This document shows, piece by piece, positions 3,204 through 57,760 of a DNA stretch of 64,000 nt. How positions within the stretch are numbered: the first letter of the stretch is position 1; each line of letters opens with the position of its first letter. Below the pieces are notes generated by a model, which did no database searches, was not told the origin of the DNA, and was given only the letters and a program-made list of their open reading frames with translations. The DNA is taken from contig OZ374557.1 of the NCBI GenBank assembly GCA_977862235.1, positions 2,294,001 through 2,358,000 on the forward strand. Direction: 5' to 3'. The DNA comes from Dudresnaya verticillata. Taxonomy: Eukaryota. Made by a program: the position numbers and the translations under genes.

Positions 3204-3220
3204 AACTATGCAGGGGGTCG

Positions 3221-18174: not shown

Positions 18175-18407
18175 GATCCCCCTCCTTAAACGGCGCCACG
18201 TCCTCCGGCGCCCACCGTCACGGATTGCCATCGCTTCCGCGCCCACACATTCAACCGATACGGCTAACGCTCTCAACTTTCCCTTCTCCTGCGTGCGCCT
18301 TCTTCCAATATTACAGGGGAGAAAAGCAAGCGCTCCCCCTCCCCTTTCAACTAACATGTCGTACCCGTGCGAGCACGGCGACGAGAGCGCCGGGCGCGCC
18401 TACCTTC

Positions 18408-27041: not shown

Positions 27042-28250
27042 TTACAACCCTTTGTTCCTGCCAAAACCCGCTATAGTGGATGCTGGTCGGGTGTTCCTCA
27101 GCTGTGCAAGTAGATCTCCGATATTAGTCTTCCAAATGTTGATGCGCTCAGGCAGCGGCTGCCACTCTTCTCGCGTAAACATACGCTGCGTTGATCGATA
27201 AATCGCGACCGACGAATTCAGCTGCTTAATCATCGCATCCTCCAGACCTGAGCTGATCGCACAGGTAACCCAATCCTCGACCTCGCCCTCGGAAATTTGC
27301 AGAGCAGTCGCAGTCATACTGTATGCGAGATCCTGACAGTCTATTCCAAGTGAAGCAAATGTGAGCAGGCTCATCTTGTTTTCCGCAATCACCACGTCAA
27401 TCTCGTACTTTGCAAGAAGAGCATCATTCCTGCTTCTGAACTCCGTGAAAACAGCAAGATCGTCGCGGACAAAGATGATAATGAGCTCGAACAATAGTTT
27501 TGGTCGCCGTCCTGCGCTCCGAATCGCTTAACTGAATCTAGTTCAAGCAAGGTGTCAAATCGATACAACTTCGGGAGTAGAACAGCCTGGACAATTACAT
27601 CTACATCAGCATCTTCAACGGGCCGATAATCTTCATCCGTATCACTGCAATACAAACCAAGCTGCTTAATGTTGAAAGAAAATGCGTCCTTAGCCATGTC
27701 TGCCAACTTGAGAGCCTCATATCACACCCGATACATATTTGCGCTTCTCTGGGACACCAACCTGCAACTGGCGTGAGAAAGTATCGATTTTCGGCAGAAT
27801 GGTGTCGACAGTCTTCGGCATTAGCCCAACACTGACCGCCAAGGAAATTGTAGCTCCAAGGAGCGAGCACCGCTTTTGCACGTGCTCTTCGTTGACAGAG
27901 TAACTCTGTTGTAAATCAAAGCCATGCAACGCAGTCTGAAATTACCGCTGGAGACGCCTGAGCAGAGCCGTTTGCAAATCTTGTCCACAAGATCATTGTC
28001 CATAGAGCACTCCTTCTTGACCCAGAGCAGAAGCTCCTGCATACAGCCTTCAAGCGACCCTAGGCCGTCGGAATCAACCGCCAGACCCGTTGCGACGATG
28101 AACGCGTCTCCAAGGGCCTTGGTTTCACCTGGGGAGTCGCTGTTTGCCACGGCAGATTCAACATTCTGCGTTAGGCAATCATTGGTGAAGGTGGTGGCGG
28201 TGAAGGAGTTCCGGAACGACCACCGTTCCCCCGGGCAAGTTTTTCTATGC
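27042..28250 (-). pseudogene. EIF3M: Eukaryotic translation initiation factor 3 subunit M (PCI domain), frameshifted and 5'-truncated
   Basis: YRFDTLLELDSVK, KMSLLTFASL, ALQISEGEVEDWV..AI, STQRMFTREEW...W. Confidence 0.85.
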
Positions 28251-28257
28251 GTACAGT

Positions 28258-30470
28258 TTGAACATATCTTTCGCCCTGCCCTCTGCGAGGTATCAACATT
28301 TCTCTCAAGGAATGACATTGCTCACGGGTATGTTCTTCTTAACGCTCACTATCCTCTATGTAATACGGTTGTTGAGACAAGGGCGCAGAAATATCACGCA
28401 TGAGCAGGTTTGGGTCTTCTTCCTCGATGTTATGGCATTACTCTACTTCAACCCTCTTCATGCCATCAACCGTTTCATAGAAACAAATGGTGGCGAAAGG
28501 ACATTGAATTACAGTACCTTCCCGGATTGGTATAACAATTGGGATGTGGCCAGTGATGTGTTGCGTGATGTGGCCTTTGCGGGATTCTCTTCCTTCTACC
28601 TTTGGGCAAGCCTGCACTCTTACCGCATTCTGGAGGCCACTAAGAGATTGGGCTGGGGCTTCTATATCCCAAAGTTGCTCGTGCTTATCCCGTACGTTGT
28701 CTCCAAGTTTGTGATTGTGTACGTGTTGGACATGACCCTGTCTGAAGTGTCTATGCTCTCAGCTGCTGCTTTCTCGTTCTACTTCAGCGCGTATCACGTG
28801 TGGAGCCATTTGAAGGTAGAGCTCCTCCTCTGTATCCCGTTTTCAGTCATTGAATTGCTGTTCATCGCAATTATTGGGTATGAGGCATGGAAGACAACCA
28901 ATGTGTTGGAGAAGGCACCATACATGAAGCATCGGTGCAAACGGGTTGGATTCAGGTTTTTCTTGTATACCAAATTTGTTTTCTACCCTTTGTTTATTGG
29001 TCTGAACACTCGTCTGCTGTTCAGCAGACCGAAAGGTGAAAGTATCATTCTTCTGGTTATTGGCTTCAACATGGCGAGGGCAGATGTGACATGGATTTAT
29101 ACGCACAGCCCGGGGCTTTTGGTGCTGGGTTATGTCATTGTGACTACTTATGTTAATCTGCCCCATAATTGTACCGGGGGTGTGAAAGCGTTTTTTCAGA
29201 AGCGTAGAACTGGGCGAATCTGGGTCTCGATGGTCATTCAGCATTTCAGACTCATCATCGAGTCAGCAAGCTTCGATGAACGGCCTCAAGTACCCGTTGC
29301 CTGAAAAAGACGTCACATGGGCCAATGATGAAGAAACCCCCCGCTCTGTTGTTGACAATGATGACGAATTGGAACAACAAATCGTTGAACCGATTACGTA
29401 TAGAAAGAGAGAGTCGAAGGACAGTCTTGAGCTGAAAGCAAACTGCTTTACGATGCAGACGAACGTCATTATGTTCAACTTTGCATGGGTATGTCTATTA
29501 TTATGGGACTGCAAAGTTTGACGGCTTCATTCCTAGAGAAAACCCGTTGCCATTTGAATATGAGATCGTTGCTGCTGTGAGAAGCGAGGCAACAGATACT
29601 CAAGCACGTGTTGTTGATTGCAGTGACAGGGTCATTGAGACGTTAAAGGGAACAACGTCAATGCGAAACTCGAATACATCATTACGGATGAGCCATGAAT
29701 ATATTCGTAACGTGGTGAAGTCAAGTGTCTATGGTGAAGATGAGACGACTCGATTGAAGCGATTATTCGGCAGAAGATATCTACACGGTAAGATTCACAA
29801 GCGATTTGCGATTGCCTATAAGAGTGTTGCAGATGAAGTGATGGAAGTGGTGCGGCAATTAAGAGCAAGAAGGTAAAGACCTATATTCTTGACCGGATAC
29901 AGTCTAGGAGGTGCACTCGGAACAATCTGCAGCCTGGATCTATGGGTGAAGTTGGATGTGAGCCGACGTGAAATTTTCGTGTCCACGTCTGGATCACCTC
30001 GAGTCGGGAATCACGACTTTGCAGGAGTGTACAAAGAAGTGGTGCCTCTGCACTGGCGCATAGTTGTGGATCCAGACATGGTTGCCAATTTACCAAACGT
30101 GGGGTACACTCATGTCGGGAAGAAGGTGGTGCTGACTCCACACGGAGAGATGATTATCGAACCCAACGCAGTGGAACAGCGGCCATGGACAGGTGAGACG
30201 GCCGGTTTTGCATATCACCGCAAGGCGAGCTACATGCTTGCAATGCGGGCATGGTGCGTAAGAAATCACGGGATGACATACACGCCCGTATTCTGGCCGT
30301 TCCCGGTGCGACCCGAGGACAAGCGGCAGTTCGCTGGGGCGGTCCCAGAGGAGGAAGATGCGGCTAGGCGCAGGGTGGCTTCTAAGATCATTCGCATGGA
30401 CGCGATGGTGGATGCACCTAGCGCAGGGGACACGGAACTGGCGAATATGAATACAGCAGCACAGAAATGA
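28258..30470 (+). pseudogene. Multi-pass membrane protein with a C-terminal class-3 lipase domain (frameshifted)
   Basis: Hydrophobic helices with HEQVWVFFL..LLYFNP, then KGTTS, HKRF, TGYSLGGALGT, GSPRVGN, WRIVVDPDMV..LP, YTHVG. Confidence 0.85.
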
Positions 30471-31330
30471 AACAGAAACAGCCTCTAGTCCCGCGCTTGT
30501 AATAAACGTTAGGCAAGCTGTAGTAGAGGAGTCCCAAATGCACCCCCAGATCACGCAGTCAGCTTTGCTCGCGATGTGAAGACTTCGAGCCTGTTATGTG
30601 CAGCATTCTCGTTATGTATTGTGTAGCACAGCAGTGAACGTGAGTGATGCAAGCGCTCGAGGTCTCCTGGTCTACAAGTCAGAACTCAGGTGCCCCAGGG
30701 TATTGTTGGACAATAATAGAGCTCTCCCATTCGCTGCCGATTCTGAGACTCCCACCCGGAAGTGCGGGTGGTGCAGGGATCCCGAGTCACTCATCGCTGT
30801 GATTCCAATTCAAGGGTATGGAACCCGGCACTCAGATGATGCTTTCGCTATAGCTATGTATTAAAATACACCGGTAATACTAGTACAAGGTCCGAATCGT
30901 GGTGAACCGTGCACGGTGCACATGGACAGCGCATAATATCACCAGTCGTTCTGATTCCACATCACGAGCAGAATACTTGCCATAAATCGGTGACCGACTG
31001 CCTGCAGCCCACACATGTTCCGAAAGCATTCCGGGGGACCAGACAATATTGTAATTAGGGGACGAAGAAACGCCTCCTTTGAGTGGGTCAGATGCCTAAC
31101 GATAGGTAGACCGTTGCTCACTCACTGGTGATTCCGTTTCGCATATGCACACAGAACAGCATAGGAGGTTATCTGGCGAGGTTTCAGCACGTGACACCAC
31201 TCCGGCGCCCACTGCGTTCTCTTCCCGATATTCTTGTTCCACCGCACTGCGCTGACCGCCACCAAAGGCCGCTTTTGACCCCCCACCCTTTCTTTTCTCA
31301 CGATCGTGCGACGCGTACTCAAAAGCGCTA

Positions 31331-33784
31331 TTGACGGCACTGATCCCAGCGAGACAAGACAATACTCCCGTCGACACTACAGCAGAAGAATGTGCGGGAG
31401 GTCGTGATCACGCTTCTGAAGAAGAGCATCCTGACGTCGGAACTGCAGACGATGGGGAGGATGCTGATTCCGACACGCCGGAACGGCACCCCTCCGAAGG
31501 GGAGGAGATGGCAGTAGAAGGGCGTGGAGACGGCCAGGCTAGTGCTAGGACGAGCCGGAAGAGGAATTATAGACATGATGCTCGTCCGAAAGGAACCCCA
31601 TCGGGGCATTTGATGGCTGTGAAGAGGAGAAAGGTAGTGGAGGTGATGGAGATGCAGGATATCTCAAACATTTTCTGCTGCCAAACGAAACAATGCTTCG
31701 GAACCATCGAGTCAGTCTACATCAGGGTTGAGTCACGCAATATGATGGACAAGAATCGCGCGGAAAGGAAGCGATACCTCACGGGACTACTGGAACCCAA
31801 CTCCAACATGTACTTCTTCAGCGGACGGCCGGTTTGTTACTCATTTCTCGACAAGGCTTTCGGTTTCTCTAGAGACCTGCAGTCGGCAGTGAAAGGAACA
31901 AACAAGAGCCGCGAAAGAAAAGGGAGGGGGCTGATAGTTGGTGGTACGTCTACGGAACAGATGGAGGTGATAACGTCGTTCTTGGAGCGCCTCGCAGAAG
32001 TGTCTGGTGATTCGCAACCAGACAAGGCTGAAATCCACATCCCCTTCTATGAGAAGCTCTCAGTCTATAACACGTTTGTGACTGAGCACCGCACTCTGTA
32101 CCCTAACAGAGCAACACCATCATAGAGCTACTTTTATAGTATCTGGCTCCGCAGCTGTCCGCAAATTAAGGTCAGGCGAACTCACCGGTTTGCAAAATGC
32201 TCCGAGTGCGAGGAGATCAAAGATCTTCTCGCAAAAGCGGCAACGGATCTAGCGGGAACCGAAGCGCTTCGCGAGCGGTGGGCAGGGCACGTGAGAATGG
32301 TCATGCAGGAGCGAACAGAATATCGGAAGAAGTGTGAGATGGCTTCGATGTATCCGAACAACTATTGCTCACTCATCATCGACGGTGCTGACCAGTCCGC
32401 ATTTGGACTGCCACACTTCCACATCAAGGTGAAGGACACACGCGGACACGGAATGAAGGCCAAAGTAATCGGCGTTTTACAGCATGGCCAAGTCCCACAT
32501 CTAAACCTTTTCACGATGACTGCCGAGTTCGAAACAGGCGCAAACCATGTCATCGAAGCTTTGCATCGCGTATTGATGGCACGCAGAGACAGGATGCCAC
32601 TGAAGGGTACGTTGTTCCTCCAGGTCGACAACTGTACTAGGGAAAATATGAACAGGTTTATGTTCGGCTACTTGGAGTATCTCGTTGCTATGGGTGTATT
32701 TCCGGAAGTGCATGCGTCGTTTCTCCCCATCGGTCACACGCATGCCGATATCGATCAAGTGTTCAGCTGCACTTCGAAGAGATTACGCGTTCGAGACGCC
32801 ATTATCATGGACGACCTCATGCACGAACTACGGCAATCATACACTCCTCAACCGCGTGTCACGGAGATATTGCACATTATTAATTTCTCCGGGTTGTGCA
32901 AAGAGACCAGATGCCTCGGGCGTACCGGGCCCATTTCAGAATATCGATACTTTAGGTTCAGTGCCGAAGGAGCTAAGGACACAGACGCCGGTACGTTCAC
33001 GACTCTCTGCGAAGCGAAGAGGGGCTGCAAAGACTCTTGGAAACCGTTACATACGCGAGATGGCCAGGGCGATTTTTGTTATTTCCCCCAACTTGCACCG
33101 GACTCCACCGACTCCCTGTCGAGCACCGCCAGATGAACACGAAGTAACCAAGCGTCTACGATCCGCCGAGACCAGAATCAACAATCACAGTAAGCTACAG
33201 AAGCTATTGACACTTCGTGATAGAGTTTACGAGGACCGTGAAGACCCATTCCACTGGGCATTGGCGGATGTGTTTGAGTTGGAAGGGGCTTACAAACCGG
33301 ATGGGAGCGGCCCTAGCGCACCCTCGGAATCGGGGTCAGATGCTGAGAATGTAGTGGAACAGGACCTCACTTACACAAAGAACAGCTTTGTAGCCGTACT
33401 AGCCGACGATTGTACCGAAGGTTGCCCGTTCTGGCTTGGGCAGGTGATGAATTGAGAGACGGACGGGGGGGCAAGGTGACCAATTTTCAAGTAGAGTGGT
33501 ACGATAGAAGGAGTACTCGAGGGAATACTTTCACCGGGCGTTATCGGAAGGCGAGAATAACCGATGCAAATGGACATGTCAAACCGTGGAGCGATACGGT
33601 CCCGGGGAAGTCGGTTTTAGTGGAGTTCGCGCGTTTAACCAACTCTGGAATACCCGTCACGGTGCAGCGAAAGATCAGGGAAGCCCTAGAGATGCAAAAG
33701 AGAGGAGACGATCCGGAAATTAGTACTTCTGTAGAGGCGGGGGACCAGGAGCAAATGACATGGAAAGCAACTAGCCTCGAGTGA
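31331..33784 (+). pseudogene. Sola-like (DUF7869-type) DDD DNA transposase with one in-frame stop and frameshifts
   Basis: CC..QC and VC Cys motifs, RFAKCSEC, LIIDGADQ, LFLQVDNCTREN, FLPIGHTHADIDQVFS, and C-terminal FVAV..PFWLG..VEWY. TAG at 32123-32125. Confidence 0.75.
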
Positions 33785-34777: not shown

Positions 34778-36818
34778 CTAGGCGTAGGAAGGCATATGCG
34801 GCAGCATCCATGGGTCTACGTCTGGAGAGTCCGAATCGAAAATTTCTTGGCCTCTTTCCCGGAATGTAGCGACGTAAACTTGCTCAACCGTTGTCTTAGC
34901 TTGCAAGACATTGACTCGCTCCGAACCGTAGCGATTTTGTAACAGTTGAACGTCATCATCTTCCTGCTCGTCTTCCATCACGAAGATGTCCATAACGAAC
35001 GCTACCATGTAGTTGGATATCCAATTGTATATAAAATCATGCTGCTAACAGCAACACGTGAATGCACGATAAAGGTAAGCAAGACGAACCACTTGGTCCA
35101 GTTCCCATAACTCGACGCTGATGCAATCGCTTCTGCGCTTCTGCAATTTCTGTAAGAGATGCAACGATGACGGAAGAAAATAATGTGTACCATCCTGATC
35201 CCATACCGTGTAAATCAACGGTATGTTTAGTTAAGTTAAGATGAGTGGCCAGTAGTCGTTGTCAACATACCCGTCCAAGATTTGATTGGTTTTAGGACTC
35301 AGTGTCGGATTCGACGCATAGATCAGACCACCAAGTAGCTCAACTCCAGCGGCCGCGAAGACGTACATCAAACCTAGACTGGCAGCGCTCATAATCATTT
35401 CCAGCATATAGAGAGCGGAGAACCCACAGTCGAGAACAACAAAACCAACTGGATTCCTTGAGAGTCCTTGTTCCGCAGATCCATTGTCGTCTCAATCACG
35501 ACGACAATGAGATTGACGGCCATGACAACGCACATATGATATGTATGGGCATTATGACGCGCATAAGAAGCAATAGACTGCCACCACGATGCTTCATATA
35601 GTTCCGGGCAAACATTTCCATCGGATAGATTCTCTCGAGCGCAATGATGAGCTTGAGTTGAAGCACGTCGACTACGTCCGAAAACTCCTTACGACTAAGG
35701 CTGTTGTCCTGATTGCCACCCAGGGCTGTAAAGACCAGATCCACTCGCTCATCATCCATGTGGCTGTGCTTGTGGTTCTTCCAAAGTTAGTCAAACAGGA
35801 GTTTGATATCTGGGACCATGCAATTTCCATCGTCACCACCCAAGATGTCGTACGCTAACCCATGGTTGCAATACCATTCCTACGCGCTTGTAGCTTATCG
35901 ATAACAAATTCCTCGATATGGCCTGTGTACGCGTTGTATACAACAGCGAGCAAGACATTGAAAAACAGAAAGTCTCTAATGACGATGAACACCAAGAACA
36001 TCAACGCACTTGCCCTCGAGAAATCCAAAACAGCCATGATCTGCATCGGCCAATCCGCAGTTGTTAACGAAGCGAAAGCGGAGCTCCGCTGTCAACTAGT
36101 AGAGCCCAGAGGTGAGGTCGCCAAAGTAGCGATCGAACTCTGGAACATCATGGAACAGAATGGTAACGAGCCAACTGAAGAAGAACGCAAATAGAGCGAC
36201 GACTCTCACGACATCGATGAAAGGGCTTACAACGGAAAGGATTCCCATCGTATACTCACGAAGGGAACCTCAGTGAAACAAGGGCAGAGTTGCACGAATG
36301 TATGGCGCAAACCGGATAGGGGGTTGGCCGGCGTGCATTGCGACGACAAAGAAACCGACCACGAGCAGAGCGAGTATGACTCGCGGAATGCGACGAGAAT
36401 GGAGCTGAGCCGTGGGGAGCAGAACGGCATCGTGGATGACGTAGGAGATAAGGATAGCGAGGAGCGAGGCATAGACAGCGGCGGCGTACATGGGCGGGAG
36501 ATATGGGAGCCCCGAGAGGAAGAGGGAGGAGCCATCGGGTCAGACGAAGACACGGGTGGGAGAGCAATAGTATTGTATTGTAACGCATTAAGTTCAGAGC
36601 TCGAAGAATGGTCTCGTCAACTATCCATGCTCGCAGGGATTGGCGTGATAATGCGGTTACCTCCGCAACCGCGCGCGGCGTACCGCGGAAGAATCGCCCG
36701 GGATTAACGGCATCGTCTGTGTCGTCTCGAGCTTGAAAAGAGAGGAGGTGGTGATGGTAGGAGACGGCGGTAACCACGAGGACGGTGCATGCGGTGAGGT
36801 TGCGGTGCGTGGAGACAT
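34778..36818 (-). pseudogene. TPC1: Two-pore calcium channel (TPC1-like), heavily frameshifted
   Basis: LTTADWP pore, FNVLLAVVYNAY S6, EF-hand-like NQDNSLSRKEF, and second-repeat GGLIYASNP and VAFVMDIF. ATG at 36818. Confidence 0.8.
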
Positions 36819-36849: not shown

Positions 36850-37150
36850 ATAGCTAATTCAGTGAGACTTCCGCCGGAGCTATTGGCGCATATGGATTTT
36901 TTATAGCTCCCTGTCGCCGACAGATTCGAAAAGCTATTTTCTTAGGTTTCCCATTTCGGCGACAATGGGGGCTATGTAGCTAACGGAATGCCGCGAGTGT
37001 AAATATCTATTTTCTTAGGTATTGTGATTTCGGGAAACACGGGAGCTATGTAGCTCCCGCGGAGGAGGAAATCAAAAAGCTAAGAAAATAGATACTACAT
37101 TTCTCCGGCGCCATTAGCTATTGGCTGATATTCATATTCGTTTATAGCTT
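36850..37150. repeat. AT-rich tract with short direct and inverted repeats
   Basis: CTATTTTCTTAG twice direct and once inverted, GCTATGTAGCT twice, and many AGCT. Confidence 0.6.
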
Positions 37151-37839
37151 TTCACTTTGGTCCTCCTGCGTTTGCTACGTTTCCCGAGACGCCCAGCCGC
37201 ACCGCTCCGAGCCTGACATCATCTGAAAACGCACTGGCATGCCACTCAAGAAAACGCACACCACACAACACCAGTGCCCTTGACAAGGGCAGCACACGAC
37301 TGGAACCCTTTTCACAGCGTAGGTCGAGCCCTCGCCCCCGCGCCGTCCCCACTGCTTCCTCCCTTCGCATCCGGCGTCGTGCTCGGTTTAGCGCTCGCTG
37401 CAGATGATGGCTGCGTGGGCGGTGACGTTGTTCCGCTTGGAGGGTCCGTCGGCGTCGGTGCTTGTGATGTTTGTCGTGTGTAGGCGCCAGGGATTTTCGG
37501 CCGTGCGCGGCCGTGCGCAGCCATAGCCGAAAGAGACGATGGCAATCTGCATAGGACGCTTGTCAGCTGCATACACTACCAGCTGTGATAGCCCAACGCC
37601 TGGATATGAGGGAGGCCCCGCAGCCCTCCGCATGGAACGAGACGAGATGGGAGCGCATAAAGTCCATGGCGGCTGGCCACCGACGATGCGGGTCTGGCCG
37701 GCGCCCGGGGGGCGACGTCTGGCAGGAAGACGGGGCAGTCTGAATAGTTGCGCGCGAGAAGCAGTGACCGTGGAAGCTCGACGGCGCAAACCTGAAGCGG
37801 CGCAGCCAGGAAGACCAGCAGCAAGAGGGGAAGTGTGTT

Positions 37840-38724
37840 GTGGTCCGGGGGCGGGAGCGGCGGCGTCGGACTGAGATTCATGAGGGACGGTGGGTACCGG
37901 ACGAAAGTTGGACTTTGCGCGAAGCTACTCCGCAGTCTGAGAAGTGGAACGCTCTCTCGCAGCGTGATGAAGCCCAACCTACAGTCCCACTAAGATTGGA
38001 GTTGGGATCGTTGCACAAGAGCGCGATCATACTCGGAAAAGGCTTCCCATCACTGAAGCACGAGATGCGGATGGCCCTGGAAAAGCAGGCCTATCTCAAT
38101 GCGTCGGGGTATGACGTGTTCATGTGCCACAGTGGGCTGGACAAGGAGACGATGGCTATGTCTTTGTGGAGGATGCTCCGCGACCGGGGCGTATCAGCAT
38201 TCGTAGACAGGGAAAGTCTCGCAGTTGGCAATGACGCACACGGCTCGATGGATACGGCAATGGAGAAAGCTCGAGTCGGTGTCTTCATTGTGTCGCCCGA
38301 GTTTCCCGCCAAGCTTTGGACGATTTGCGAGCTGATATCAGATATGTGCTTCCAGAAACGCTGCGCGCATGCTGCGAAAGTTCTCGCCCGCGTGCCATCT
38401 ATCGTTCCTGTGTTCTATCGCGCGCATTTGGACTACCTCAGAGATGAGGCAGCGTTGTTTCCAGCCTCTGACGAAGCTGGTGAGAATGTCTCTGTCAAGC
38501 ATGAGTTCTTTGCGCGTGCCGCGAAGGGAGAGACAATCGTTGCTGCTGTGATGGAAAGCATGCGCTTGCTGAAGAAAACAAGTGGCATCGAAAACTTTGA
38601 GAAGGCGACCAATGTGCATGATGCTGAAAGTAGAGGAAAGCGAGAGTTGCTACTGCGACTGGTTGCAGACGATGTGTTACGCGTTGTTGATGAGGTGAGA
38701 GACTTGCAGAAGGTAGCTTCATAG
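37840..38724 (+). CDS. TIR-domain protein (start uncertain)
   Basis: YDVFMCHSG.DK, AFVDRESL..G, VFIVSPEF...WTICEL, IVPVFY. No internal stop. Confidence 0.8.
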   Translation: MVRGRERRRRTEIHEGRWVPDESWTLREATPQSEKWNALSQRDEAQPTVPLRLELGSLHKSAIILGKGFPSLKHEMRMALEKQAYLNASGYDVFMCHSGLDKETMAMSLWRMLRDRGVSAFVDRESLAVGNDAHGSMDTAMEKARVGVFIVSPEFPAKLWTICELISDMCFQKRCAHAAKVLARVPSIVPVFYRAHLDYLRDEAALFPASDEAGENVSVKHEFFARAAKGETIVAAVMESMRLLKKTSGIENFEKATNVHDAESRGKRELLLRLVADDVLRVVDEVRDLQKVAS

Positions 38725-38878: not shown

Positions 38879-39371
38879 CTAGGCGCTCATCACCACCACT
38901 CCCGGAACCTGAGACTTAAGTGATTCGGGGCGGCGCATTTGTGAGGGCGACATGTCTGACGCCTTTATCATATCAAGGGGTGGACTCTGGCGCATATCTC
39001 TACCCGGACAGCCACAGCTGGTGTCAAGTTCCGGATGCCTGCGCTCCAAGACATCAAGAACCAATGCGCAGGGTATACTCTATCGCCTCATAGGCGGCAA
39101 TAAGCGCACCTTCAACCGATTCACTATGCTCCGACGCGACTTCCGTGCCCGCAAACGCGAGACGGAGTTCTCTAAGTTCCTTCCTGAGCTCGGAGACATG
39201 CGTGTATGACTGAAACGGGTCAGGCTCTGCCTTTTGCGCCTGTGCAATAGGAGCCAAACGCTCTAACGTGAGATACGGTAGGCGACTAAAATCGAGCTTG
39301 AAGTTAACAAGTCTCTTGCGAGCCTCAAAACCGAAAAGCACTTCGAGCTGGTCGATGTCCTGATTCCGCAC
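38879..39371 (-). other. Degraded orphan ORF
   Basis: Overlapping ORFs 39054-39371 and 38879-39064 with helical composition, on the same strand as the upstream ORF cluster. Confidence 0.3.
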
Positions 39372-39619
39372 GGCTGAATCTCTAAGTCTGCGGAACTCGA
39401 GTGCATGCGCGAAACGCGAGCAGCGAAGCGAAGGACCTTCGGGGCGAGTTATTCACGGAAGAGGGCAAAGACGAATAGTTCGCAATGGCCGTGTCCCATT
39501 ACAAATATGTCCAATGGATTCCACTGCTGGTCTCCAGGCTTCCCGCAGTGGCAACCCTTGATGGTAAGTGCTAGGGCCGTTCTCATCTTTACTACAGCCC
39601 GATGGCAGTCTACTCAGTT

Positions 39620-39898
39620 CTAGACGGAATCGGAAGAAGGGTCTTCTACATTGCGATCTTGACGTCCTCTGACGACACGAACGGAACTATGCAGGTCTTG
39701 AATCCGGATCCTGACGTAGCGAAGTTTTCTCAACGTCCTTCTCCCGAAGTCATGCACAAGGTGTCTTACGAAATCAAATGCCCTTTGCACTTCGGTTTCT
39801 AGCTCCCGCACAGTGTTGCGAAGATGGTAGATTTCAGCACGTAGAAGTGCCAACTCTCGCTGCACTTCGGCCATTGTTGGATTGACAGGTAGCGGCAT
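39620..39898 (-). CDS. Small basic coiled-coil orphan protein (92 aa)
   Basis: Open from ATG to stop; heptads EVQRELALLRAEIYHLRNTV; similar to the neighbouring ORF. Confidence 0.5.
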   Translation of the reverse strand: MPLPVNPTMAEVQRELALLRAEIYHLRNTVRELETEVQRAFDFVRHLVHDFGRRTLRKLRYVRIRIQDLHSSVRVVRGRQDRNVEDPSSDSV

Positions 39899-39972
39899 TG
39901 TTTTTGTACGAAGTCTGAAAAAGTCACATGGAAGCTTGAAACTGATTCTCAATGTCGAAGTCCAGGTCGGGC

Positions 39973-40242
39973 TCATCTTCTTCGTTGCGTTGTATCTACC
40001 CTTTCGATTGACCGCAGCCTTCTTCTAGCACTTCGGGCAATATAAACGGCGTTTATCACTACTCTGGACAATCGGTCCATAACAGCGGCAACCACCGCCC
40101 TCATTCGTTGTCGAGCTCTTTCCACTGCCGTCCTTAATCCTTCCACCTCGCCTCGAAGAGCACGCAATTCGGACAGTAGGCGAGCAGGGTCGACATCCGA
40201 ACTTCCGCTGCCTTGGTCGCGAGGAGCGTGCATGGATGCCAT
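39973..40242 (-). CDS. Small basic coiled-coil orphan protein (89 aa)
   Basis: Open from ATG to stop; RLLSELRALRGEVEGLRTAV. Confidence 0.5.
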   Translation of the reverse strand: MASMHAPRDQGSGSSDVDPARLLSELRALRGEVEGLRTAVERARQRMRAVVAAVMDRLSRVVINAVYIARSARRRLRSIERVDTTQRRR

Positions 40243-40338
40243 AGTTCCTTCCAGCTGGAAATGTGCAGTGGACCGTCCGCCGCCCTCGACTGGCAGACTG
40301 TACATCCGGTACAGCCCAAAAATAGATGGAGCAGACTT

Positions 40339-43268
40339 TCATGGCTCTCTATCACAACCCTCCATCATGTGAAGATCCCATACGAAGAATGCGTTTAAGT
40401 CTCGCAGCAGTGCTGGCGGTTCCTCCGGACCCGTAAAAGTGTACTTGTACGGCCTCTCCGCGAACGCATCGCGAACTTTGAAGGAAAATACAGCCACGAG
40501 ATTGTCTCCCTCCTTGCCGAGCTCCCGCAACCCTTGCTGGTGTATTTCTGTCTTCAGTCCGTGGGCGTCGTTACCCGGTTGCAGTACTGCCTTCCCAACC
40601 TTATCTGGACCACACAGCAGCCAAACTGCGTCACCACCTTTGCGTTGCGGTCGATCGCATGACAGCGGTTTCTCCCTAGGTTTTCCTGTACGTTTCCCAG
40701 ACTGTTGCTTACCTGGGGACATCATTAGAGTCTGTGATTCCCTTTCAGACTGATCAGTGCGTACCCTCTTCGTGTCCGGCTGTTTGTCCATCTGTTTTGC
40801 CGAGCGCTTCTGTGCTTGGACCCCTGAATCTTGATACGACCCGTTCTGCTTCTCCTCTGCCATGCGGTGCAGGCGTGCACGAGCCAGTCTGTATGTTTCC
40901 GGGTTTCTTTCGACGAGGTAACACTCTCTGTCTGTCCGAACGCAGGCAATGCCTGTAGTCATTGTACCCGCATGAGATTCTAGGGCCGAGCCGCCTTCAG
41001 GGCAGAAGGGTGTGATGATCTCACTAAGTGCATCAGGATTTTTCTCCTCCGTCAGAACTGGTGCCCTGCTAGTCCCTGGCTTCATGAGCTTATCTCTGGG
41101 TACGGGAACAGAGGTCATCACAGCAAAAGTTCGTCGCTCCTTACACGAGATGACGTGGTACGGGCTGGAGAGGTCTGGAGAGAAAGAGTTCTTGGATGTA
41201 CCCTTGTGTCTTCCGAAGGCTGCTGCCTCAGCCGCATTCTCCAGTCCCTTCTTGCGACTTATCGGGACAGTAGTTGTGTCTTTGCAGATTAAGAAAGGGT
41301 ACTGCGGACTATCGAAATTGTTGTCGGTAAGTGCCTTTTGAAACAACGGGAATTTCAAGAAGCTGCAGAACAGAAACACCCAACCACCCTCCTTCACAAA
41401 ACGTCCACAAAACTCGCAAAGGCGCTTGATGTCTTCTTCACTGAAATGGTTTGCGTATGCAGTTCCAGCATTTGACATTCCCTTCGGGGTTCCATACGGA
41501 GGGTCAGCAAGCACGACGTCAAATAGAGGACTGCATTCATTCCTGATTGATTGGTCATATTCCTCCCACTTCATCTGATATGTTCGTATCCTGCATTTGG
41601 AAAGCGGGTCCTTCTCCTCCAGATCAGAACCGGTATCCAGTCTCTCCGAATTGCGTGTTGAAGAAACAGAACGACTACCCGGTCCAATACACTCGTTCGG
41701 GATGTCATTGTTACCAGCTAATGCGCCTGTGTCGTTGTCGTCTGTAGGATCCAGGACCGATTGCGTAATCTGCCTCTGCGTGTCAGTTACAGTCTCCTTA
41801 ACGGCTTCCGACTGCTTTTGGCCACCAAGGGCCCCCTTCGAGTCTTTTTCTTTCCCCCCTTGAGTTTTTCCATCAACTTCAGAACTCGTCTTATCAATCT
41901 CGGAAGCTGAAACTATTGGCCTGTCACTTTCTCCTATGTCTAGAGATGTATCTTTCCCAGAATCCGTTTCTGCTTGGAACTGGTGCTTGAATTTCTTTTC
42001 CTTAACTGGAGCTTGTTGCGGGCATTCCCTTCGATAAACGGCTATCAAGAGCTTGAGCACATCGTGGTCATTTCCGAAGTTTGCACGCACCTCGTGGTCC
42101 AGCTTCGTGGAACGAAGGAGATTCTGGCGAATGACGTTCATACCTTCAGGCCAACTCTGGCTCTCGATAAGGCGTTAGAATTTCCGTGCTTCCCTCATTG
42201 CTGCCTTCGCCCTTCCAAATTGTTCCAGAGTCTGAAAGCTGGTGACTGACCGGAACCTCTGAAGTCGATGTACTTCGCGTAGTCGGTACAAAGATGAAAT
42301 CTGTATTTCTACGCCATCATCCAGTTTGTTCCCATTCATGAAGGCGATTGCAGACTTCTGTGATGAAATGTGGGTGAACTTTCTGTGACTCGGCAGTCAA
42401 CCGTCCTCGTTGCTCCGTCCTTGTCGAGTGTTGTCCCTTCCTTGTCTCCTGTCATCTTTGCAGCTATATCCGGTCTCTCCTCATTTGGAATTTGTCCAAT
42501 TGCGTGAATTACTCTCGTATCCAACCGCATAACTGTCTGAGCAGTCTGTTTAATGGTGTTATTCCGATATAACTTCGAACCGTCATACGCCTCCGCAATT
42601 TTTGGGGCATTTGGTTGTTTCCCAGTCTTGGTCTGCAACCTCTCCGCCTCCTCCCGCAGACCGCGGACCAGGTCAAAAAATGTAGTCTCGATAAAGTATC
42701 CCTGGTCGTGTTTCTCATTCTGATGTCTTGCCAGCTGCCGGAGCTCATAGACGTTGTGCCCACCCTTCAAAATCGTTACAGGCCATGCGAAAGACTGCCA
42801 GACTGTTGGGAACTCCTCCATTAACTCCAAAATAACGCAATGTCTACGCAAGCCGTCAATAATGCCGTACCATTTGGAGCGATTGTTTGCCTTCTCCAAA
42901 GCCTCCTCCTCCGTGTACTCCTTCCCTTGCCCTTTCATATTCTTGAAATACGCAACGACGTGACCCCGCAGAGACCCTGTCATTTCGATGACAATTGGAG
43001 AGTCAGACCCGGCAACGTACCCAATAGTCCCTTCACCGCCTTTCTTCTCTGATGAGTGTAGATGAATGCGAGCTTTGAGGCGTTCCACTCCGGAGCGCGC
43101 CACGGGTCTTATTGCCGTTAGCGGGAAGCACTCCCTGGGGTCAATTCTCATATTCACGGAACCCTCCATTACGTCAGAAAACAATGCCCTCCCCATACTT
43201 GCAGAAGAGCAATTTTGGTCCGCTTCAGATTGTGTAACAGCACCCTTTCCTGAACGTTTCTTGCCCAT
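40339..43268 (-). pseudogene. ParB/Srx-like domain + beta-class amino-DNA methyltransferase (DPPY) fusion, ~975 aa reconstructed
   Basis: IRPV..SGVERL...PIV...YGIIDGLRR (ParB-like), and FDVVLADPPYG upstream of EKNP and ESHAGTMTT (motif IV before motif I). The two ORFs join through a 1-nt frameshift near 42387 and one TAA at 42175-42177. Confidence 0.8.
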
Positions 43269-44693
43269 CCAGCCAAAAGTATAATTCAGCACTTTTGAAA
43301 AAACGGTCGCCGTACGTCTTTCCAACTGGTTGCCGTAGGTGTTTCCAACTGGTTGCGTTATGCTGATGAGCACGGGATAAGCGTTGCGGTTTTCACGAAG
43401 AGCACTTCGGGTTTACAACAATATGTCCGTAGTCAGGTCAGTGGTCACGGCATTGAAAGACAGGATATATCATGCCGGTTTCCAGCTTTAACCTGGAAAC
43501 GAAGTTTGTCCACATGACTAACAGCCTCACGTACGGTTTTAACTTTTCCGGAAAGATAGTTAGAGCCCTGTACCATTGGTGGTGCCCTGATACATTGCGC
43601 GAGATTTCATGAAGCTACAAGTCACTGCAGGGTTCTATTGGTCGTCGGTAAATATATCGACGTATTGTGCGGTAGGGGTGTTCACCCTAAGTTCGTACTT
43701 TCTCAGAAACCATTTGGAAGTCAGTTCTAGCCGTCCAACCGTACAGTGATTCCGATTCACAGCTCCCCTACCAGAGTATCTAAACAATGCTCAAGGCGGG
43801 TAAGAAATGGGCATACGAAATAGTTCCACAACGTGGAGGGGAAATTGGAAGTACGTGTGCCTGCGTAGGCACACTCCCTTGGACTGGGGGTGATGTAGAC
43901 GATTCGCAAACGTACAGTCATTCCAATTGTACCAACATGAACGTGTTCCTCAGAAACGATAGGAATAACCTAGGGTTTTCGAATTGGCAAGAGGTTACTG
44001 TCCGCCTTCACAGAGTCGTTTAACATTGGCATTTCCTGAAACCTGCGCCTCCACCCTGCAGATATGGTCATCATAAGACCACTGTAGCACCGAAACAAAC
44101 TGATGATCACAATCTGCCATCGGATGCCACGACAAACGTAAGTATGCGTGTTACCCAATGATACAAGTAATATCAAGGTCAGGGAAATGATTAATACCAT
44201 ACGTGAGACCATAATACAGCATGTACCAGTGTGTCCGAGTGATCCCTGTAAATACGTTCCAGAATTGTGCACAGGTGAACATGTCCTCGTTCTAGCGATA
44301 CAGAAAAGCCCTATTCTGCGGAGGTTCAGACAGTCTGATCTGCGGTTCCACCTAATATCTGAGCGGTGTATGTGAACTATCCAGCAAGTTGAGGCTGCAT
44401 TTTTGCAGGGTCCTCATACTGCTGCCGGTATAAGTGCTTCGGTACAGTAAGGTCATTCTGATTACCGGAATTTGAACGTGTCCAATCGAAGATATATCCC
44501 TATTAGTATACAGAGAATGCCTAAGCCTCGTACACAGCAAAAACCATTAGCTACAAGTGTTACTTTCCGTTTAAAAGCGCGCAATCGTTGCATTTCACAG
44601 ACCTCCTCTACGGTACTGAGGAACAGAAATACGGCTGTACACACAGGGAAGAGGATTTCTTGGCGAAGTGTAGTCATTCCTATTACTATCGAC

Positions 44694-45227
44694 ATGCTCA
44701 TTGACCTCCCGGTGTTGCCGGACGACATACAGTCAGGTTTCTGCGCATTTCATGACCTCATGCGCTGTGAATTGAGGCGTCGATTGGCAGAGCAGCAGCG
44801 CCGCCTTAATGGTGACTCTTTGCAATTTTCGGAACGCATAATGCGATCCTTGGAGGTGAAGGATAAAGAAAGAGTCATGGAACAGAAGCGTGCTCGGGAG
44901 TTTGAGGTCGTTATGGGTCAATACGATCATGACCAGAACATGCTCACAGTGGTATACCGTGGGGGTATGAGGAAGCTTGATTACGTATCGGGGGATGCTT
45001 TCTCCGGATCCGAAGCTCATGAAATCGATGCCGTCTTGGTCGAGGCGATTCGCCTGGCAAGCGAGCCAGTACGGGAGATGGAGCGAATGTGCCGCCTTCT
45101 CCTGGCTTGGCATTTTGCCAAAACTGACGCAGAAGGGACTGTGGAGGTAAAGGAGGCAAGGGTGGCCCGTGCGGAGCAGGACGTGCGCGTCATGTATAAG
45201 AAAGCTTCTTCATGCAAGTCTGTTTAA
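44694..45227 (+). CDS. Hypothetical protein (177 aa)
   Basis: Open from ATG to stop with protein-like composition; no motif recognised. Confidence 0.45.
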   Translation: MLIDLPVLPDDIQSGFCAFHDLMRCELRRRLAEQQRRLNGDSLQFSERIMRSLEVKDKERVMEQKRAREFEVVMGQYDHDQNMLTVVYRGGMRKLDYVSGDAFSGSEAHEIDAVLVEAIRLASEPVREMERMCRLLLAWHFAKTDAEGTVEVKEARVARAEQDVRVMYKKASSCKSV

Positions 45228-50039: not shown

Positions 50040-50104
50040 GACCCCCTCCTTAAATCGCGGCACGTCCTCGTGCGCCACAGCATGTCTTCTACAAATCCAC
50101 TCAG

Positions 50105-52883
50105 GTGTATCCAACGACGGAGCGAACCTCATCAGTGCACTCCACCTCGGGCAAGTCGACCAACGTTCAAATGCAACCCGGTGTGCCTCTAGCGATGGCG
50201 GGCGGTAGCACTGACCGATCACGGGGACCCTTCCAACCGACACGGCGTACAACTTCGGTGGGGGCGGCTCCTGCGCCGGAGACAGAAGAGAGAGAAGGCG
50301 GCGGGCCCGCGGAAACCATAGCGGGGGTTGTGGCGGCAACGAGCGCAACGCCGACGCTGCCAGCGCGTGCAGGTAGCCCACGGGTGCCGCGACGGCGTGA
50401 TGACGGCGAGGCTCTACAGACGCCCAGTACGCTTCCGGATCGGCAGATGGGGCTGGAGGCACAACGGCCTGGCCTTTCAAAATGCAACACCGCGATGGAG
50501 GCCCTTGGCTGTCGTCGAGCAACTCCGCATGGGCGATACGAGGCGTATGCGCAGGGTCTCCAGGTTGGTGTAGGCGGCGCACCGTCGGGTCCACTGCCAT
50601 ACGCGCCGGGGGCACCGGGGAGTTACCATGGGCATGTGAACTCGACGGGCTACACCGATGAGGAAACTTGGCCTGGCCGGGAATATGATCATCGCACCGG
50701 TCGGTGTCAGCGTACCGAAGAGGAGCGCGGTATGTTTCGTCTCCCCATGCCCGTATCGGTGTTTGTTTCCAACTATGATGGCACCCTCGAGGGGCGTCGC
50801 TACAGCGCCGTCACAGACTCCGGTGGGTTAATCAATAACAAGTGGTTCCCGAATCGGCGTGAGGAGATTGGAGAGCCAGGTGGATTCACTCAAATTGTAG
50901 AGTGCGAACTCCAACCGGGTGTGACATCGTGTGGTTGAGGTCTCAGGAAGAAGAGGGCTATCCCATCAAGGTGTGTTGGTTGCTGGCGATGGCCCACCGA
51001 CTGCGAGACCATCTGGTTGGTGTCGACTTCCTATGCTACGAGAAGCCGTACGACCAAGGCGTCCATTGGTTTGAGAATCCGCAACGGTGGGCTGACGACG
51101 CAGCGAAAGAGCATCGACTCCGGTTGCGGAGTAGAGATGGGCGCCGCCTCGGAAGGGTGATACTCCACACCTGGAACACGAACGAGTTTGTCCAGGTGCC
51201 GCCGGGTGCGCATCGTCGATTGTACTGCATCGCTCCGGATTGGTGGGCTGAGTACGAAGTCACCCGTTGGCTGTCAGTTCCAACTCCGACGGTGGTGGCG
51301 TACTTCTCCAATCGGTTTATCCAGCATCGCGACTGGCAAGCTGCACACACACGTGGAGAGAAGTCAATTGACCATCCGCTGATGACTTTGTTGCGTCGGA
51401 TACTCCGAGCGGAATGGGCAATGTTCGTCCTTTTCTCCTGGTTACAGATCACCTACAGGGTTGTCAGAGCCAATACCAAGATGACCGACTGGAGGGCATA
51501 CCCGCGGAACAGAACGGATCCGGAAGGTGGCGAGTGCGGGCGCATATTCAAGCTACCCGGAACGGTGGTTACCCTTATACACCAAGTTGGAGTAGACCGG
51601 TTGCTTGAGAGGACCGAATACCCCTTGTCGCGTGTTGAGCGTCTCTTCTCGGTCCACGCAAAAACCAACTGAGAGCGAACGACAGGGTTCATCGGCTACC
51701 ATTGGGATGCAGACCGCGTGTTGTCGGTGCCACCACTCAACCCCGGACGTGGTATGGTCTATTTCCTGTCGGAAGAAGACCCCGAGCCGGTGTGGTTGAT
51801 CAGCGAGCAAATGTCGAGCTGGCACGCGATGCGCTCCCGCTCGAGATTCTACCCCAAAGCGGAGGGGCCATCAAGGGCTCCGCCATCACGCGATTGGGCA
51901 CTCCATCCGGTGTGCATCCTCAACAGGGGCGCCTTGACAGTCCGTCCGCTGACGAGAGTGCCCCAGTGGGGGTTAACGAGATCAAGAGGGTGCGTGTGGA
52001 CCCTAGGGTCCTCGTGCCAAGAGAAGCCCCTGGCGTAGAAGCCGTCAAGGCGTGGGGCGACCGCACGACCTCATCGCCCAAGATGACAGTAACGGAGTCT
52101 CCTCCTGTAGGAGCTGAGATCTAGAAGCAGGGAGATTCGTCGGGGGTGGCCGCAACGTCCACGCCAATCGGGGCTCCGAAAGCCGTAGTCTCACCGGGAA
52201 TCAGCAAGAACACCAAGTTGGAAAAAGCGGCGGGTGCCGTGGCGGTAGTTGGTCCGAAGCCCACGCTAGTAGCTGCAGCAGCGGCTAAGTTGGGTCCCGT
52301 CGGGGAACAAGAAGACTCCGAAGTGGGAAAGGACACTACACCGGTGGGAACCTACCAGGTGGAGTCATTAGCAACCACACGCCCTGGAATCGCAGTGTGG
52401 ACTACTGTACCGAAGCGGAGCGAAGTTGCCAAGCCGGTGTCGCCCGCGTTGAGTGACTCCGTGATGTTCGTAGCTGCTGCGGGTCCAGATGGAGGACCAC
52501 CACGTCATATCGGCCCCGTGACGGTTAAGCAAGAGGAGGATACCCCGAAGGAGATGGCGAGTTGGACCGAAGCGGAGTTGCGCGTCGATGGAGCTGTCGT
52601 GCAGCGACTCCGCGACGGGTGTAGAGATGCGGGTATGTCTCTTCCAACGTCGGCGAACGAGTCCATCAACACCGCAGTGCTGTGGGTCGGGCGTCTGGTG
52701 CGCCTGCGACGTACCATTCGCACTTTGCATCGTCGCATGACAGACACCGGTAGGAGACTCACAATGATCACCGCAAGAGTGTATGATGAGGACATTCCCG
52801 ACTCGGAGGAGAGCGCGGCCAAAGAGGAGGATACGGGGGCTGATCTGGCGCCACCAGCAAAGCGCCTGCAGAATGCAGTGTAA
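50105..52883 (+). pseudogene. Antisense accessory ORF of E5
   Basis: Pieces 50105-50938, 50902-51672, 51718-52038, 51702-52124 and 52146-52883. AATAAA at 52906-52911. Confidence 0.85.
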
Positions 52884-53267
52884 TTGCGTAATGATGCCAC
52901 TTGTCAATAAAATCTCGTGATTTGTGTGAGCTCCCTTCCACTGGCGGAAGGGAAGTGGAATAACACCACTGTGGAGTGAGCCCCGAAGCGGCGGGGGTTA
53001 CCATCCACCATACAAGGCTTTGCGTCCGATTGACAACCACCTAATACCAGAAGTGGTTGCGCGCTCGCCAGCGATACTCCAATATGGAGTAGAGCCCCTT
53101 GGGCAAGGGTTCTGTGGTTACAGAGTCCACAGATCATGCCCTTTTTTGCCAACGCCAAGTCACCAAGAAGGAGTAGAGACCCTTGGAAAAGGGCTTCGCG
53201 ACAACGGAGCCCACAGGTCATGCCCGATTTTGCCAAAATCACTACGGCTTGTGCGAGTAGCAAATGG

Positions 53268-56200
53268 CTATCGACGCGTGGACGCTCGGCGACGTCGGGC
53301 CGCAGTTGCTGCCGAGCGCCTTCTATTCCAAGAGCGGTGTATGACGTTTTGTGGCAACTCCTCGGCGGGTTCATACGTGTCCTGGTCTGGTGGGTAGCCG
53401 CACCAACGCACCTTGTAGGTCATGCCTGTGGGTTCTTCGCGGTGTCCCACGATCTGCTCGATGACATACTCCGTGTCGGCATCAATTGTCTCCGGAACGG
53501 GGGCAGGAATACCGCCTGGCGTTTAGGGCGTTACAGTAATACCACCTGGTGTTTCGGGTACTACTGTGGTGCCGCCCGCCTGCTGGGGTACCGCAACGTC
53601 CACGTCGGTGTGTGGCGTAACCGGCGGAGCCAATAGCGGCGCCAGCTGTACGGGAACTCCAATTGGTACCATAGTGATACGATCGATGCTAATGGGAATC
53701 AGGACGCCGTCCTTCTTGATAGTGACTACAGTGTCCGTTGCGGTGTGAACCTCGTAGGGGCCTGTCAATCTTGGGAGGAGCTTCTTCATTTGCTCCGCAA
53801 ATTCACCGACGTGGTCAGGGCCTTGACCCAATCTGTCGCGTTCCTTCCGTTCGGTGGGTCGTAGATTACGCGGCGGGCGATCTACGTAGACTTGATCGCT
53901 ACCGCGAACCACCGGTCGGAAACTCACCTTATGGTCGAAGAGGGTCTTAGACTTCAACTGGGCTGTAGTCTGTTTGGTCTGCACCTCCTGTAGGGCATAG
54001 CGCAAACGCCGCATGGTTCCCCGCTTTTGGAGCACGGGCGTCATACGCCCCTCCGTAACGGTTTCTTCCAGCTCCAGAGGGGTGCCACGAATAATAATAT
54101 CCGATGGGTGTCGAGTTAACATCAAGTCAAAGGGAGTAGTATCCGTAATCCGGTGTACCTGCATATTGTAGGAGTAGCTCAACGGCTGTAGGTATAAAAC
54201 CCAGTCGGTGTGGTGATCCTCGACGTAGTATCGAAGGCGCTGCGCGATGGTTTTGTTAAACCGCTCGGCTTGCCCGTTGGTTTGTGGGCGGTAGGCAACG
54301 GTCAGGAAATGCCGCACTCCGAGTAGGGCACAGACAGCTTCGAAGAACGTTGCCGTGAACTGTCTTCCATTGTCGGTGAGTACAAATTTAGGTGCACCGT
54401 ACGCATACACCCAATGGTCTAAAAGTATGTTCGCCACCACGACGGCTGTAATCGTCCGTAACGGAATGCACCGTGTTAGTTTAGAAAACCGATCGGTGAT
54501 GACCAGTACAAAGACGTATCCCCGTTTGGTTTTCGGCAGCGGGCCCAGTGTATCCGTAGCGACAAACGCCAGTGGGCTACTCGCGGGAAATAGTTTCATG
54601 GACGTCTGATGCTTAAACCTCGTGCCCTTGGTTTTGACACATGAGCGGTAACTCCGAACGGTCTCGAATACATCGTTAGCCATATGTGGCCAATAGTAGT
54701 CTCTCCGTAAGGTTTAGTACATCTTAATTCCACCAGGGTGTCCCGACACGAGGGTGTAGTGGGCAACATACAGGACTCTGCCACGCATCTGTTGCGGTAC
54801 CAACTTTTGGAGTGCACCGTCAAGAGCAGACTTGCGAACAAGAAACCCACGTCGGTCGTAGTCGAATTGTGATCCAGGGGATCCCATCGATTCGGCTTTA
54901 AGCCTGCAAAAAGTATCCGTTGCTTGCGCGGCTATGAACGCCTCACGGGTAAGGGTCTCATTTCGCATATCCTCTTGTTCGATGAGCGTTTGCCGGAGTG
55001 GAGTGAGTGGTACTGTATCCTTTTCAGGCGTAGTATCCGTTTTGGTGTCTCCACTTTCAACGCCTGGGAGAGGCTGCTCGAGGCATCCGGTTGCTGGGAT
55101 TGTTTGCAATTGGTTAGTTGCACACCATGTTGCACTACACCATTAAGAGTCGTTTCCATAACGAAGCAAGGCACTTCCTCATCGAACTCAGCTTTGTCAG
55201 CACCACCTGTTCGGAGTCTTGACATACCGTCAGCAAGTTGGTGCTTCATACCAGGGCGGTATTGTACTTCGAACGCAAATTCCGATAGGCGTAGGCGCCA
55301 TCTTGCTAAGCGTCCAGACGCATCGGCTAAACTCAATATCCAGCGTAATGCGTCGTGATCCGTACGGAGTATAAACGTTTCACCGAAAAGGTAAGGACGT
55401 AGCGTTAGCATACTCCAAACGACAGCAAGGCACTCCTTTTCAGTGGTTGTGTAATTCTTCTCCGCATTGGTTAGACTTCGGCTCCAGTAACCCACTGATA
55501 GATTATCTCCACTAGGTTGCTTCTGGAGAAGGACACACCCAACTTGGTAATCACAAGCGTCGGTATCCAACGTATAATTGAAACCATGACGGGGTAAAGC
55601 CAATATTGGAGGGGAGATTAGTTGTCTCTTTAACTCCTCAAAGGCGTTTAACTCCATTTCGGTGAGAGTTCCAAACTCGAATACCAGACCCTTGCCGGTT
55701 TTCTTATTGAGTGGCGAAGCAATACGTGCAAAATTGGGAACGAAGCGTCGATAGACGTTACATAATCCTAGAAAAGAGCGCAACTCCGTTTCGTTGTAGG
55801 TGGCTTAGCCTCCTTGACGGCGAGAATATTCTTTCGCTCCACTTCCAGTTGGCCCGGGCGCACTATGTGGCCCAGATACTGTACGGAAGTGTCGAAGAAG
55901 GCACGCTTTGACAATTTCAGAGTTACACCTGCGGAACGGAGTAGCGTGAGGACCTCCTTAAGGTGTTCGAAGTGCTCCGTGACGGTGTTTGAATATACAA
56001 TCACATGATCTAGGTAGACTAAGGCAAATTGCCATTTCACCGTAGATAGGATGATGTCAACCGCCCGTTGGAAAGTAGCGGATGCGTTCTTGAGCCCAAG
56101 AGGCATTCTCTGGAAGCGGTATAATCCATAATGACTGGTGAAGGTAGTTTTGTCACGCTCCTCCTCGGGGATCTCTACTTGCCAGTAGCCGCTATTACAA

Positions 56201-57661: not shown

Positions 57662-57760
57662 GAGTCGGGGTGTGCCATGAGAGCCTCCTACACCATATTG
57701 TGGCGCAAATCGCCTTCGCGCCCTGCTGAAGAATTCTTCATAATGCCGCCACCCGCGGCT

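Follow-up and report, generated by a model that had tools for sequence, protein, structure and literature searches.

The 64-kb stretch of Dudresnaya verticillata DNA analysed here (the window) contains two minus-strand frames, 42336-43412 and 40339-42174, which carry the motifs IIDGLRR, DPPY and ESHAGTMTT. They raise the questions of whether both are parts of one broken gene, what the intact product of that gene would do and whether a transposon carried it. With moderate confidence we favour the reading that the locus is a decayed copy of an accessory gene likely carried by a red-seaweed DNA transposon; the intact product is predicted to engage the DNA of the element through a ParB fold and to write N6-methyladenine (6mA) on or near it with a beta-class methyltransferase.

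A broken gene on the minus strand

Sequence comparison revealed that both halves of the locus match a single intact protein, P0002 (1,010 aa), in order. The upstream half aligned with residues 65-340 (48% over 276 aa, E 6e-88) and the downstream half with residues 341-1006 (38% over 698 columns, E 5e-138). This bears out the initial annotation, which had read the two ORFs as one protein of ~975 aa, broken by a frameshift near 42387 and a TAA at 42175-42177. The downstream frame, used as a query with the stop read as X, matched four proteins, P0002 among them (E 4.5e-125 to 2.3e-82). With eight intact homologues, tblastn placed the frame change at 42387 or inside the nearest alignable stretch, and residue 1 of the relative P0028 aligned at the ATG at 43268. 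Intact relatives of the gene are single ORFs of ~1,000 aa. Both the gene and the two breaks in it are genuine features of the window sequence (Table 1). Neither a second methylase nor a second transposase remnant was found within the 64 kb, where the methylase gene is present as a single copy.

Table 1. Coordinates of the two broken genes in the window and of the domains, motifs and breaks of the methylase gene
Feature	Position	Strand	Basis or remark
Broken ParB-fold/DNA methyltransferase gene (pseudogene, ~975 codons)	40339..43268	minus	ORFs, alignments of relatives
ParB/sulfiredoxin-fold domain	42702..43166	minus	limits carried over from P0002 model
IIDGLRR, ParB-type DGxxR signature	42843..42863	minus	H and A of all 9 close intact relatives altered
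All-helical conserved region after ParB fold; contains both breaks	41990..42700, approximate	minus	alignment, P0002 model
One-base frameshift, outside any homopolymer run	42387..42388	minus	tblastn with intact relatives
In-frame TAA	42175..42177	minus	ORF translation
Linker, poorly conserved, low model confidence	41608..41989, approximate	minus	alignment, P0002 model
Beta-class N6/N4 DNA methyltransferase domain (PF01555)	40834..41607	minus	Pfam, fold of P0002
Catalytic motif IV, DPPY	41494..41505	minus	sequence
SAM-binding motif I, ESHAGTMTT	40954..40980	minus	E and H replace the D and Y shared by all 9 close relatives
C-terminal SH3-like beta-barrel	40342..40640	minus	model; conservation in relatives
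Broken DUF7869 gene, likely DDE transposase	31256..33781	plus	Pfam DUF7869, E 7e-45

The methyltransferase domain of the window copy scored 29.4 bits with PF01555, above the Pfam cut-off of 26.7. In minus-strand order its motif IV precedes motif I, which is the arrangement of the permuted Rossmann fold of beta-class enzymes, and the previously proposed methyltransferase with DPPY ahead of a motif-I-like ESHAGTMTT is confirmed. The canonical SAM motif FxGxG is absent from the window copy, and its aromatic position is occupied by H. Comparison with nine close intact relatives showed changes at 9 of the 55 methyltransferase columns that are invariant among them, including both D and Y in the SAM motif, and at 4 of 42 invariant ParB-domain columns. 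In a leave-one-out analysis the rate of change in the methyltransferase was 16-20% for the window copy versus 0-10% for intact relatives; the corresponding rates for the ParB domain overlapped (9-11% versus 0-12%). Changes in the methyltransferase above the range of the intact proteins fit real decay and speak against breaks that are assembly errors. The window copy forms a long branch inside the DPPY clade. From its sequence we read it as a decayed pseudogene, SAM motif included, that would yield no enzyme.

Folds and motifs of the intact relatives

An AlphaFold2 model of P0002, calculated from an alignment of 90 sequences, reached a pLDDT of 81.6 and a pTM of 0.74. Residues 604-860 of this model matched CcrM (Z 24.0, rmsd 3.2, 229 aligned), followed by the further adenine enzymes M.BceJIV (Z 23.0), M.MboIIA (22.1) and M1.HpyAVI (22.0). 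The 4mC enzymes N4CMT (Z 19.8) and M.PvuII (Z 19.4) ranked below these, and Foldseek agreed with the match to beta-class methylases. Residues 72-232, compared as a domain within the full-length model, matched PadC (Z 9.9, rmsd 2.4, 97 aligned) and other proteins of the ParB/sulfiredoxin fold (Pnob8 ParB 9.2, KorB 8.0, sulfiredoxin 7.9). Pfam gave weak matches only for this domain in the relatives (DndB in 5 of 52, GmrSD_N in 2 of 52). Although Pfam is blind to the ParB-like domain of the window copy, the ParB/Srx-like domain previously proposed for it is backed by the fold of the P0002 model. Atlas features of the N-terminal part pointed to phage ParB/sulfiredoxin clusters (0.92), which we take as a lead only. 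The model supports a polypeptide in which a ParB-type fold and a beta-class amino-methyltransferase would be joined.

The C-terminal domain had initially been compared by eye with the small Tnp1/En-Spm-associated domain. It is indeed a conserved domain, found in 18 of the 48 long relatives among the 150 listed, but the proposed identity gained no support: no Tnp1/En-Spm (CACTA-associated) Pfam family was listed for 30 proteins scanned, and only a generic SH3-like barrel was recognised. Folded alone, the C-terminal 113 aa of the window protein gave a pLDDT of 85.8 and matched only SH3-like barrels (KOW, Tudor, BAH and PWWP; Z 3.9-4.7), a common arrangement. Searches with this domain returned no Pfam, Atlas or sequence match and no significant Foldseek match.

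A search with P0002 revealed 857 representatives (E<=0.001, 50% clustering), of which 150 were listed. Both domains were present in 47 of the 48 listed relatives of at least 750 aa; the domain profiles behind this count and the count of 18 above were built from those same proteins. Relatives' loci were found in none of the metagenome, viral or prokaryotic contigs searched, and the cluster annotation of 14 relatives gave no informative names. Phage genomes contained only stand-alone methylase matches, with identities below 60%. The best 25 of 70 phage matches showed 22-26% identity in the methylase domain only, and no donor was identified among them.

The canonical catalytic motif [DNS]PP[YFW] was kept in 23 of the 76 methyltransferase domains of the family, and all members of the clade of the window copy keep DPPY. 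The remaining 53 domains mostly group into entire clades that have EPPx, AIPx/SIPx or DPFQ instead. They include 34 of the 48 long members, whose frames stay open over at least 750 aa, and the SAM motif D..[YF].G was kept in 35 of the 53. In the ParB signature, D and G were kept in 77 and 83 of 85 domains, and the full DGxHR was found in 30 of 85; the window copy has DGLRR. The family shares with CcrM, M.BceJIV, M.MboIIA and M1.HpyAVI the fold (Z 22-24), the order of motif IV before motif I and DPPY. It differs from these enzymes in sequence (16-20% identity), in its ParB, helical and SH3-like domains, which are absent from CcrM-type beta-class enzymes, and in FxGxG, whose last glycine is present in M.BceJIV but in none of the 76 family domains (D is kept in 71, the aromatic residue in 67 and the first G in 66). 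Since only 23 of 76 domains have the canonical motif IV, many members are likely pseudo-enzymes; together with the missing glycine, this means that even for DPPY members activity is predicted only.

The main rival to a methylating protein follows from these counts. It holds that the gene is transposon cargo whose product is mainly a non-catalytic DNA-binding or scaffold factor, with a methyltransferase fold that would read or protect DNA or, in the manner of METTL14, pair with an active paralogue. Such a role must hold for the clades without the catalytic motif, and a precedent exists in the inactive methylase domains of DIRS1 elements and METTL14 described in the available part of Iyer et al. 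(PMC4738411). Members with long open frames and a SAM motif that is mostly kept, but without DPPY, are candidate pseudo-methylases by their sequences, and for many diverged members a role as DNA binders without catalysis is likely. As an account of the window copy's gene, however, we consider this role rather unlikely, given that its own clade is DPPY throughout and that the Asparagopsis relatives agree. The genome of Asparagopsis taxiformis contains 66 N6_N4_Mtase (PF01555) genes versus 6 in Chondrus, 5 in Porphyra and 4 in Gracilariopsis, according to the available part of its description (PMC12115072). About 2,900 of the 10,863 rows of its gene table (an estimate) were covered, plus motif and contig look-ups. 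All eight PF01555 rows in the covered part belong to the family by eye, and all eight models show DPPY, or closely match DPPY members, where the motif is visible.

A methylase active as predicted could also have no preference for its own element, methylating a short motif genome-wide or writing 4mC, with an indirect benefit for the transposon. The N4C enzymes N4CMT and M.PvuII are close folds too, and bacterial enzymes of the beta class modify short motifs at every occurrence. No private binding-site array was seen near the window gene: repeated palindromes and over-represented 8-mers were absent from 30.5-45.3 kb, a region around a decayed copy without defined ends. Against this stands the fusion of ParB fold and helical region in all but one of the long members, which suggests targeting, and the 4mC version is opposed by the adenine enzymes that rank first. 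We therefore regard this alternative as improbable. The available text of Iyer et al. (PMC4738411) ties an aspartate, rather than a serine, at the start of motif IV to N6A rather than N4C enzymes. The aspartate-led motif IV and the adenine enzymes at the top of the fold list both count for N6A, and from DPPY and these nearest folds we infer that the mark would be 6mA.

The DUF7869 partner and the window neighbourhood

The accessory gene of the favoured reading needs a carrier, and the second broken gene in the window, interrupted by one stop and by two changes of frame, bears on this point. This DUF7869 gene may be Sola-like, and we infer that DUF7869 genes encode the transposase of the element that carries the methylase family. 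The term DUF7869 did not occur in the literature searched, no relative with a solved structure was found, and no DUF7869 gene loci were found in metagenome, viral or prokaryotic contigs.

Through the look-ups in the Asparagopsis table, family gene models were located on 16 contigs. On nine of them the next upstream model lies on the opposite strand, head-to-head with the methylase, and resembles the window DUF7869 gene by eye; only ten of the contigs have any upstream model at all. The other seven comprise five contigs with a single model, one without an upstream model and one with an unrelated gene 28 kb upstream. The distance to the partner is 1.3-3.5 kb in seven cases and 10-11 kb in two. 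By eye, each partner is a fragment similar to either the N-terminal or the C-terminal portion of the window gene, and one block has 21 of 32 residues, counted by eye, in common with the window frame 31256-32122. The Asparagopsis models derive from a repeat-masked assembly, lack the DDE core and were compared by eye and not by an alignment tool. Two transposase-like models were found independently of the methylase contigs; the first proved linked, whereas the second had a contig to itself. Family genes also occur as near-identical pairs on different contigs (by eye). The head-to-head pairing supports transposon cargo at the level of this large family, which is likely red-algal and transposon-borne, and the kinship with the Asparagopsis genes points to a red seaweed as the source of the window.

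Within the window the two genes are arranged tail-to-tail, 6.5 kb apart, and seven pairings of candidate ends gave no terminal inverted repeats above shuffled sequences. This layout, the gap and the lack of terminal repeats count against one shared element. The earlier proposal that the methylase is carried by a eukaryotic transposon thus stands in part: it gains from the eukaryotic multi-copy family and from the DUF7869-type partner seen by eye in Asparagopsis, but a single element with the gene at 31.3-33.8 kb is unsupported here, where broken host-type genes also lie between the two. The window pair may stem from a single element that was rearranged and took up other genes, or it may be halves of two neighbouring elements; in the second case the methylase's own partner would be gone, or would now lie on the far side of the Gypsy nest beginning near 45.3 kb.

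That the methylase belongs to a host gene family, or is a domesticated copy in repeat-rich DNA with breaks due to assembly errors, is very improbable, as near-identical gene pairs with a DUF7869 partner recur on separate Asparagopsis contigs and the changed invariant columns oppose assembly errors, although the search for element ends was negative and the window copy has host-type genes on its flanks.

Other features of the window were also recorded. Fragments of a multi-pass ion-channel-like gene (34780-36540, minus), by eye similar to a two-pore channel, contain many stops and frame changes, and one piece matches Ion_trans (E 1.6e-4). A TIR-domain open frame lies at 37768-38724 on the plus strand (TIR_2, E 2.5e-10). 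Between these divergent genes sits a block of inverted and direct repeats (36860-37150) rich in AGCTA/TAGCT, with 48-nt arms of 71% and 20-nt arms of 90%, which may be a small non-autonomous element or a promoter structure. Directly downstream of the methylase gene and on the same strand are three short ORFs (39057-39452, 39623-39976 and 39976-40305), two of them alike by eye, with weak coiled-coil-type Pfam matches; they are possibly further cargo. An ORF of 236 aa (44517-45224, plus), divergent from the methylase gene and 1.25 kb upstream of it, occupies the place of the Asparagopsis DUF7869 partner; no Pfam or PHROG match and no homologue was found for it. A broken membrane-protein/class 3 lipase gene (27900-30470, plus; Lipase_3 E 2e-15 in its last frame) ends 0.8 kb before the DUF7869 frame. 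A Gypsy-type stretch of 4.0 kb is present as inverted copies with 99.975% identity (53759-57760 and 59999-64000, reaching the window end), which reflect either an inverted duplication of very recent date or a fold-back in the assembly. Related ORFs at 2006-3205 (minus), 17970-20018 (plus) and 50054-51672 (plus) lie in LTR-retrotransposon nests and are possibly an extra ORF of those Gypsy elements; the two scanned gave no Pfam match, and 158-3203 is 79% identical to 50101-53149 in inverted orientation.

Proposed role and relation to known systems

In the favoured reading, a transposon accessory gene, the protein of a two-gene DNA transposon would bind the DNA of the element through its ParB fold and helical region, and its beta-class methyltransferase would methylate adenine on or near the element. 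The mark might be aimed at the element itself and help it to escape silencing or to time its movement, which is the most speculative step. A more specific form, which we put forward tentatively, is an undescribed transposon in which a DUF7869 transposase lies head-to-head with a ParB-clamp/adenine methylase that would load on its own element and write a private bacterial-type 6mA mark, with whole clades turned into dead readers.

Parts of this picture have been described. Petroll et al. (bioRxiv 10.1101/2025.02.11.637652), in the available part of their preprint, report red-algal elements of the Plavaka, Mutator, Zisupton and Fanzor types that carry PAG2 and PAG3 genes, propose self-modification and describe PAG genes as moving between transposon families. 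Like the window family, PAG2 is a PF01555 adenine methylase on red-algal DNA transposons. It differs by a SET domain, which was found in none of 50 long relatives scanned here, and none of the six SET models in the covered rows of the Asparagopsis table carries PF01555. The available text reports no ParB domain for PAG2, but the screen used InterPro only, which also misses the ParB domain of the window family. In contrast to Plavaka, the partner here matches DUF7869. PAG3, also carried by a red-algal transposon, joins a ParB-like domain at its N-terminus to an enzyme of DNA-modifying type, and the authors suggest that it binds the element it sits on and modifies it. The enzyme of PAG3, however, is a putative 2OG oxygenase instead of a methyltransferase, and PAG3 lies beside tandem inverted repeats, of which none were seen here. 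Red-algal transposons with an adenine methylase and a ParB gene as separate proteins, and the idea of self-modification, are already published. Apparently new are the single ParB-methylase protein, the DUF7869 carrier and the catalytically dead clades: a fusion without SET, the DUF7869 pairing and dead clades were not found in print, with subscription journals, Repbase reports and preprint supplements outside the search. Given this scope and the InterPro-only screen for PAG2, the window family may already be among the PAG2 homologues tabulated.

The N4CMT of bdelloid rotifers resembles the window family in that a eukaryote has a beta-class enzyme of bacterial type. N4CMT, however, is encoded by the host, writes 4mC and silences transposons, whereas the window family is likely carried by transposons. 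Chlorophyte-type Dam with a ParB-type HTH and the methylases of phage ParB-terminase loci are likewise ParB-linked adenine methylases, which came into eukaryotes from prokaryotes (PMC4738411). The former belongs to group 2 of Iyer et al. and occurs in chlorophytes and chytrids; a rhodophyte methylase clade was not found in the available part of that study. DIRS and LTR retrotransposons with DAM domains also carry prokaryote-like adenine methylases and are enriched in 6mA (bioRxiv 10.64898/2026.05.21.726589), but they are retroelements, their DAM domains are another enzyme class, and ParB, N6_N4 or Plavaka are not mentioned in the available text. None of the red-algal terms looked for occurs in a 6mA survey in Nature Genetics.

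The window copy itself is dead, and its value is that of a pointer to a family whose intact DPPY members are single ORFs. The expansion to 66 N6_N4_Mtase genes in Asparagopsis, otherwise uninterpreted, would be explained as transposon amplification. Fernandez-Moreno et al., in the available part of their work, describe 6mA as lost from major multicellular lineages and its use by transposons as unexplored. With a ParB fold and an adenine methylase in one transposon protein, self-marking by a writer would have a direct and testable case; if the more specific form given above is true, this epigenetic writer would belong to a multicellular lineage for which a loss of 6mA has been assumed.
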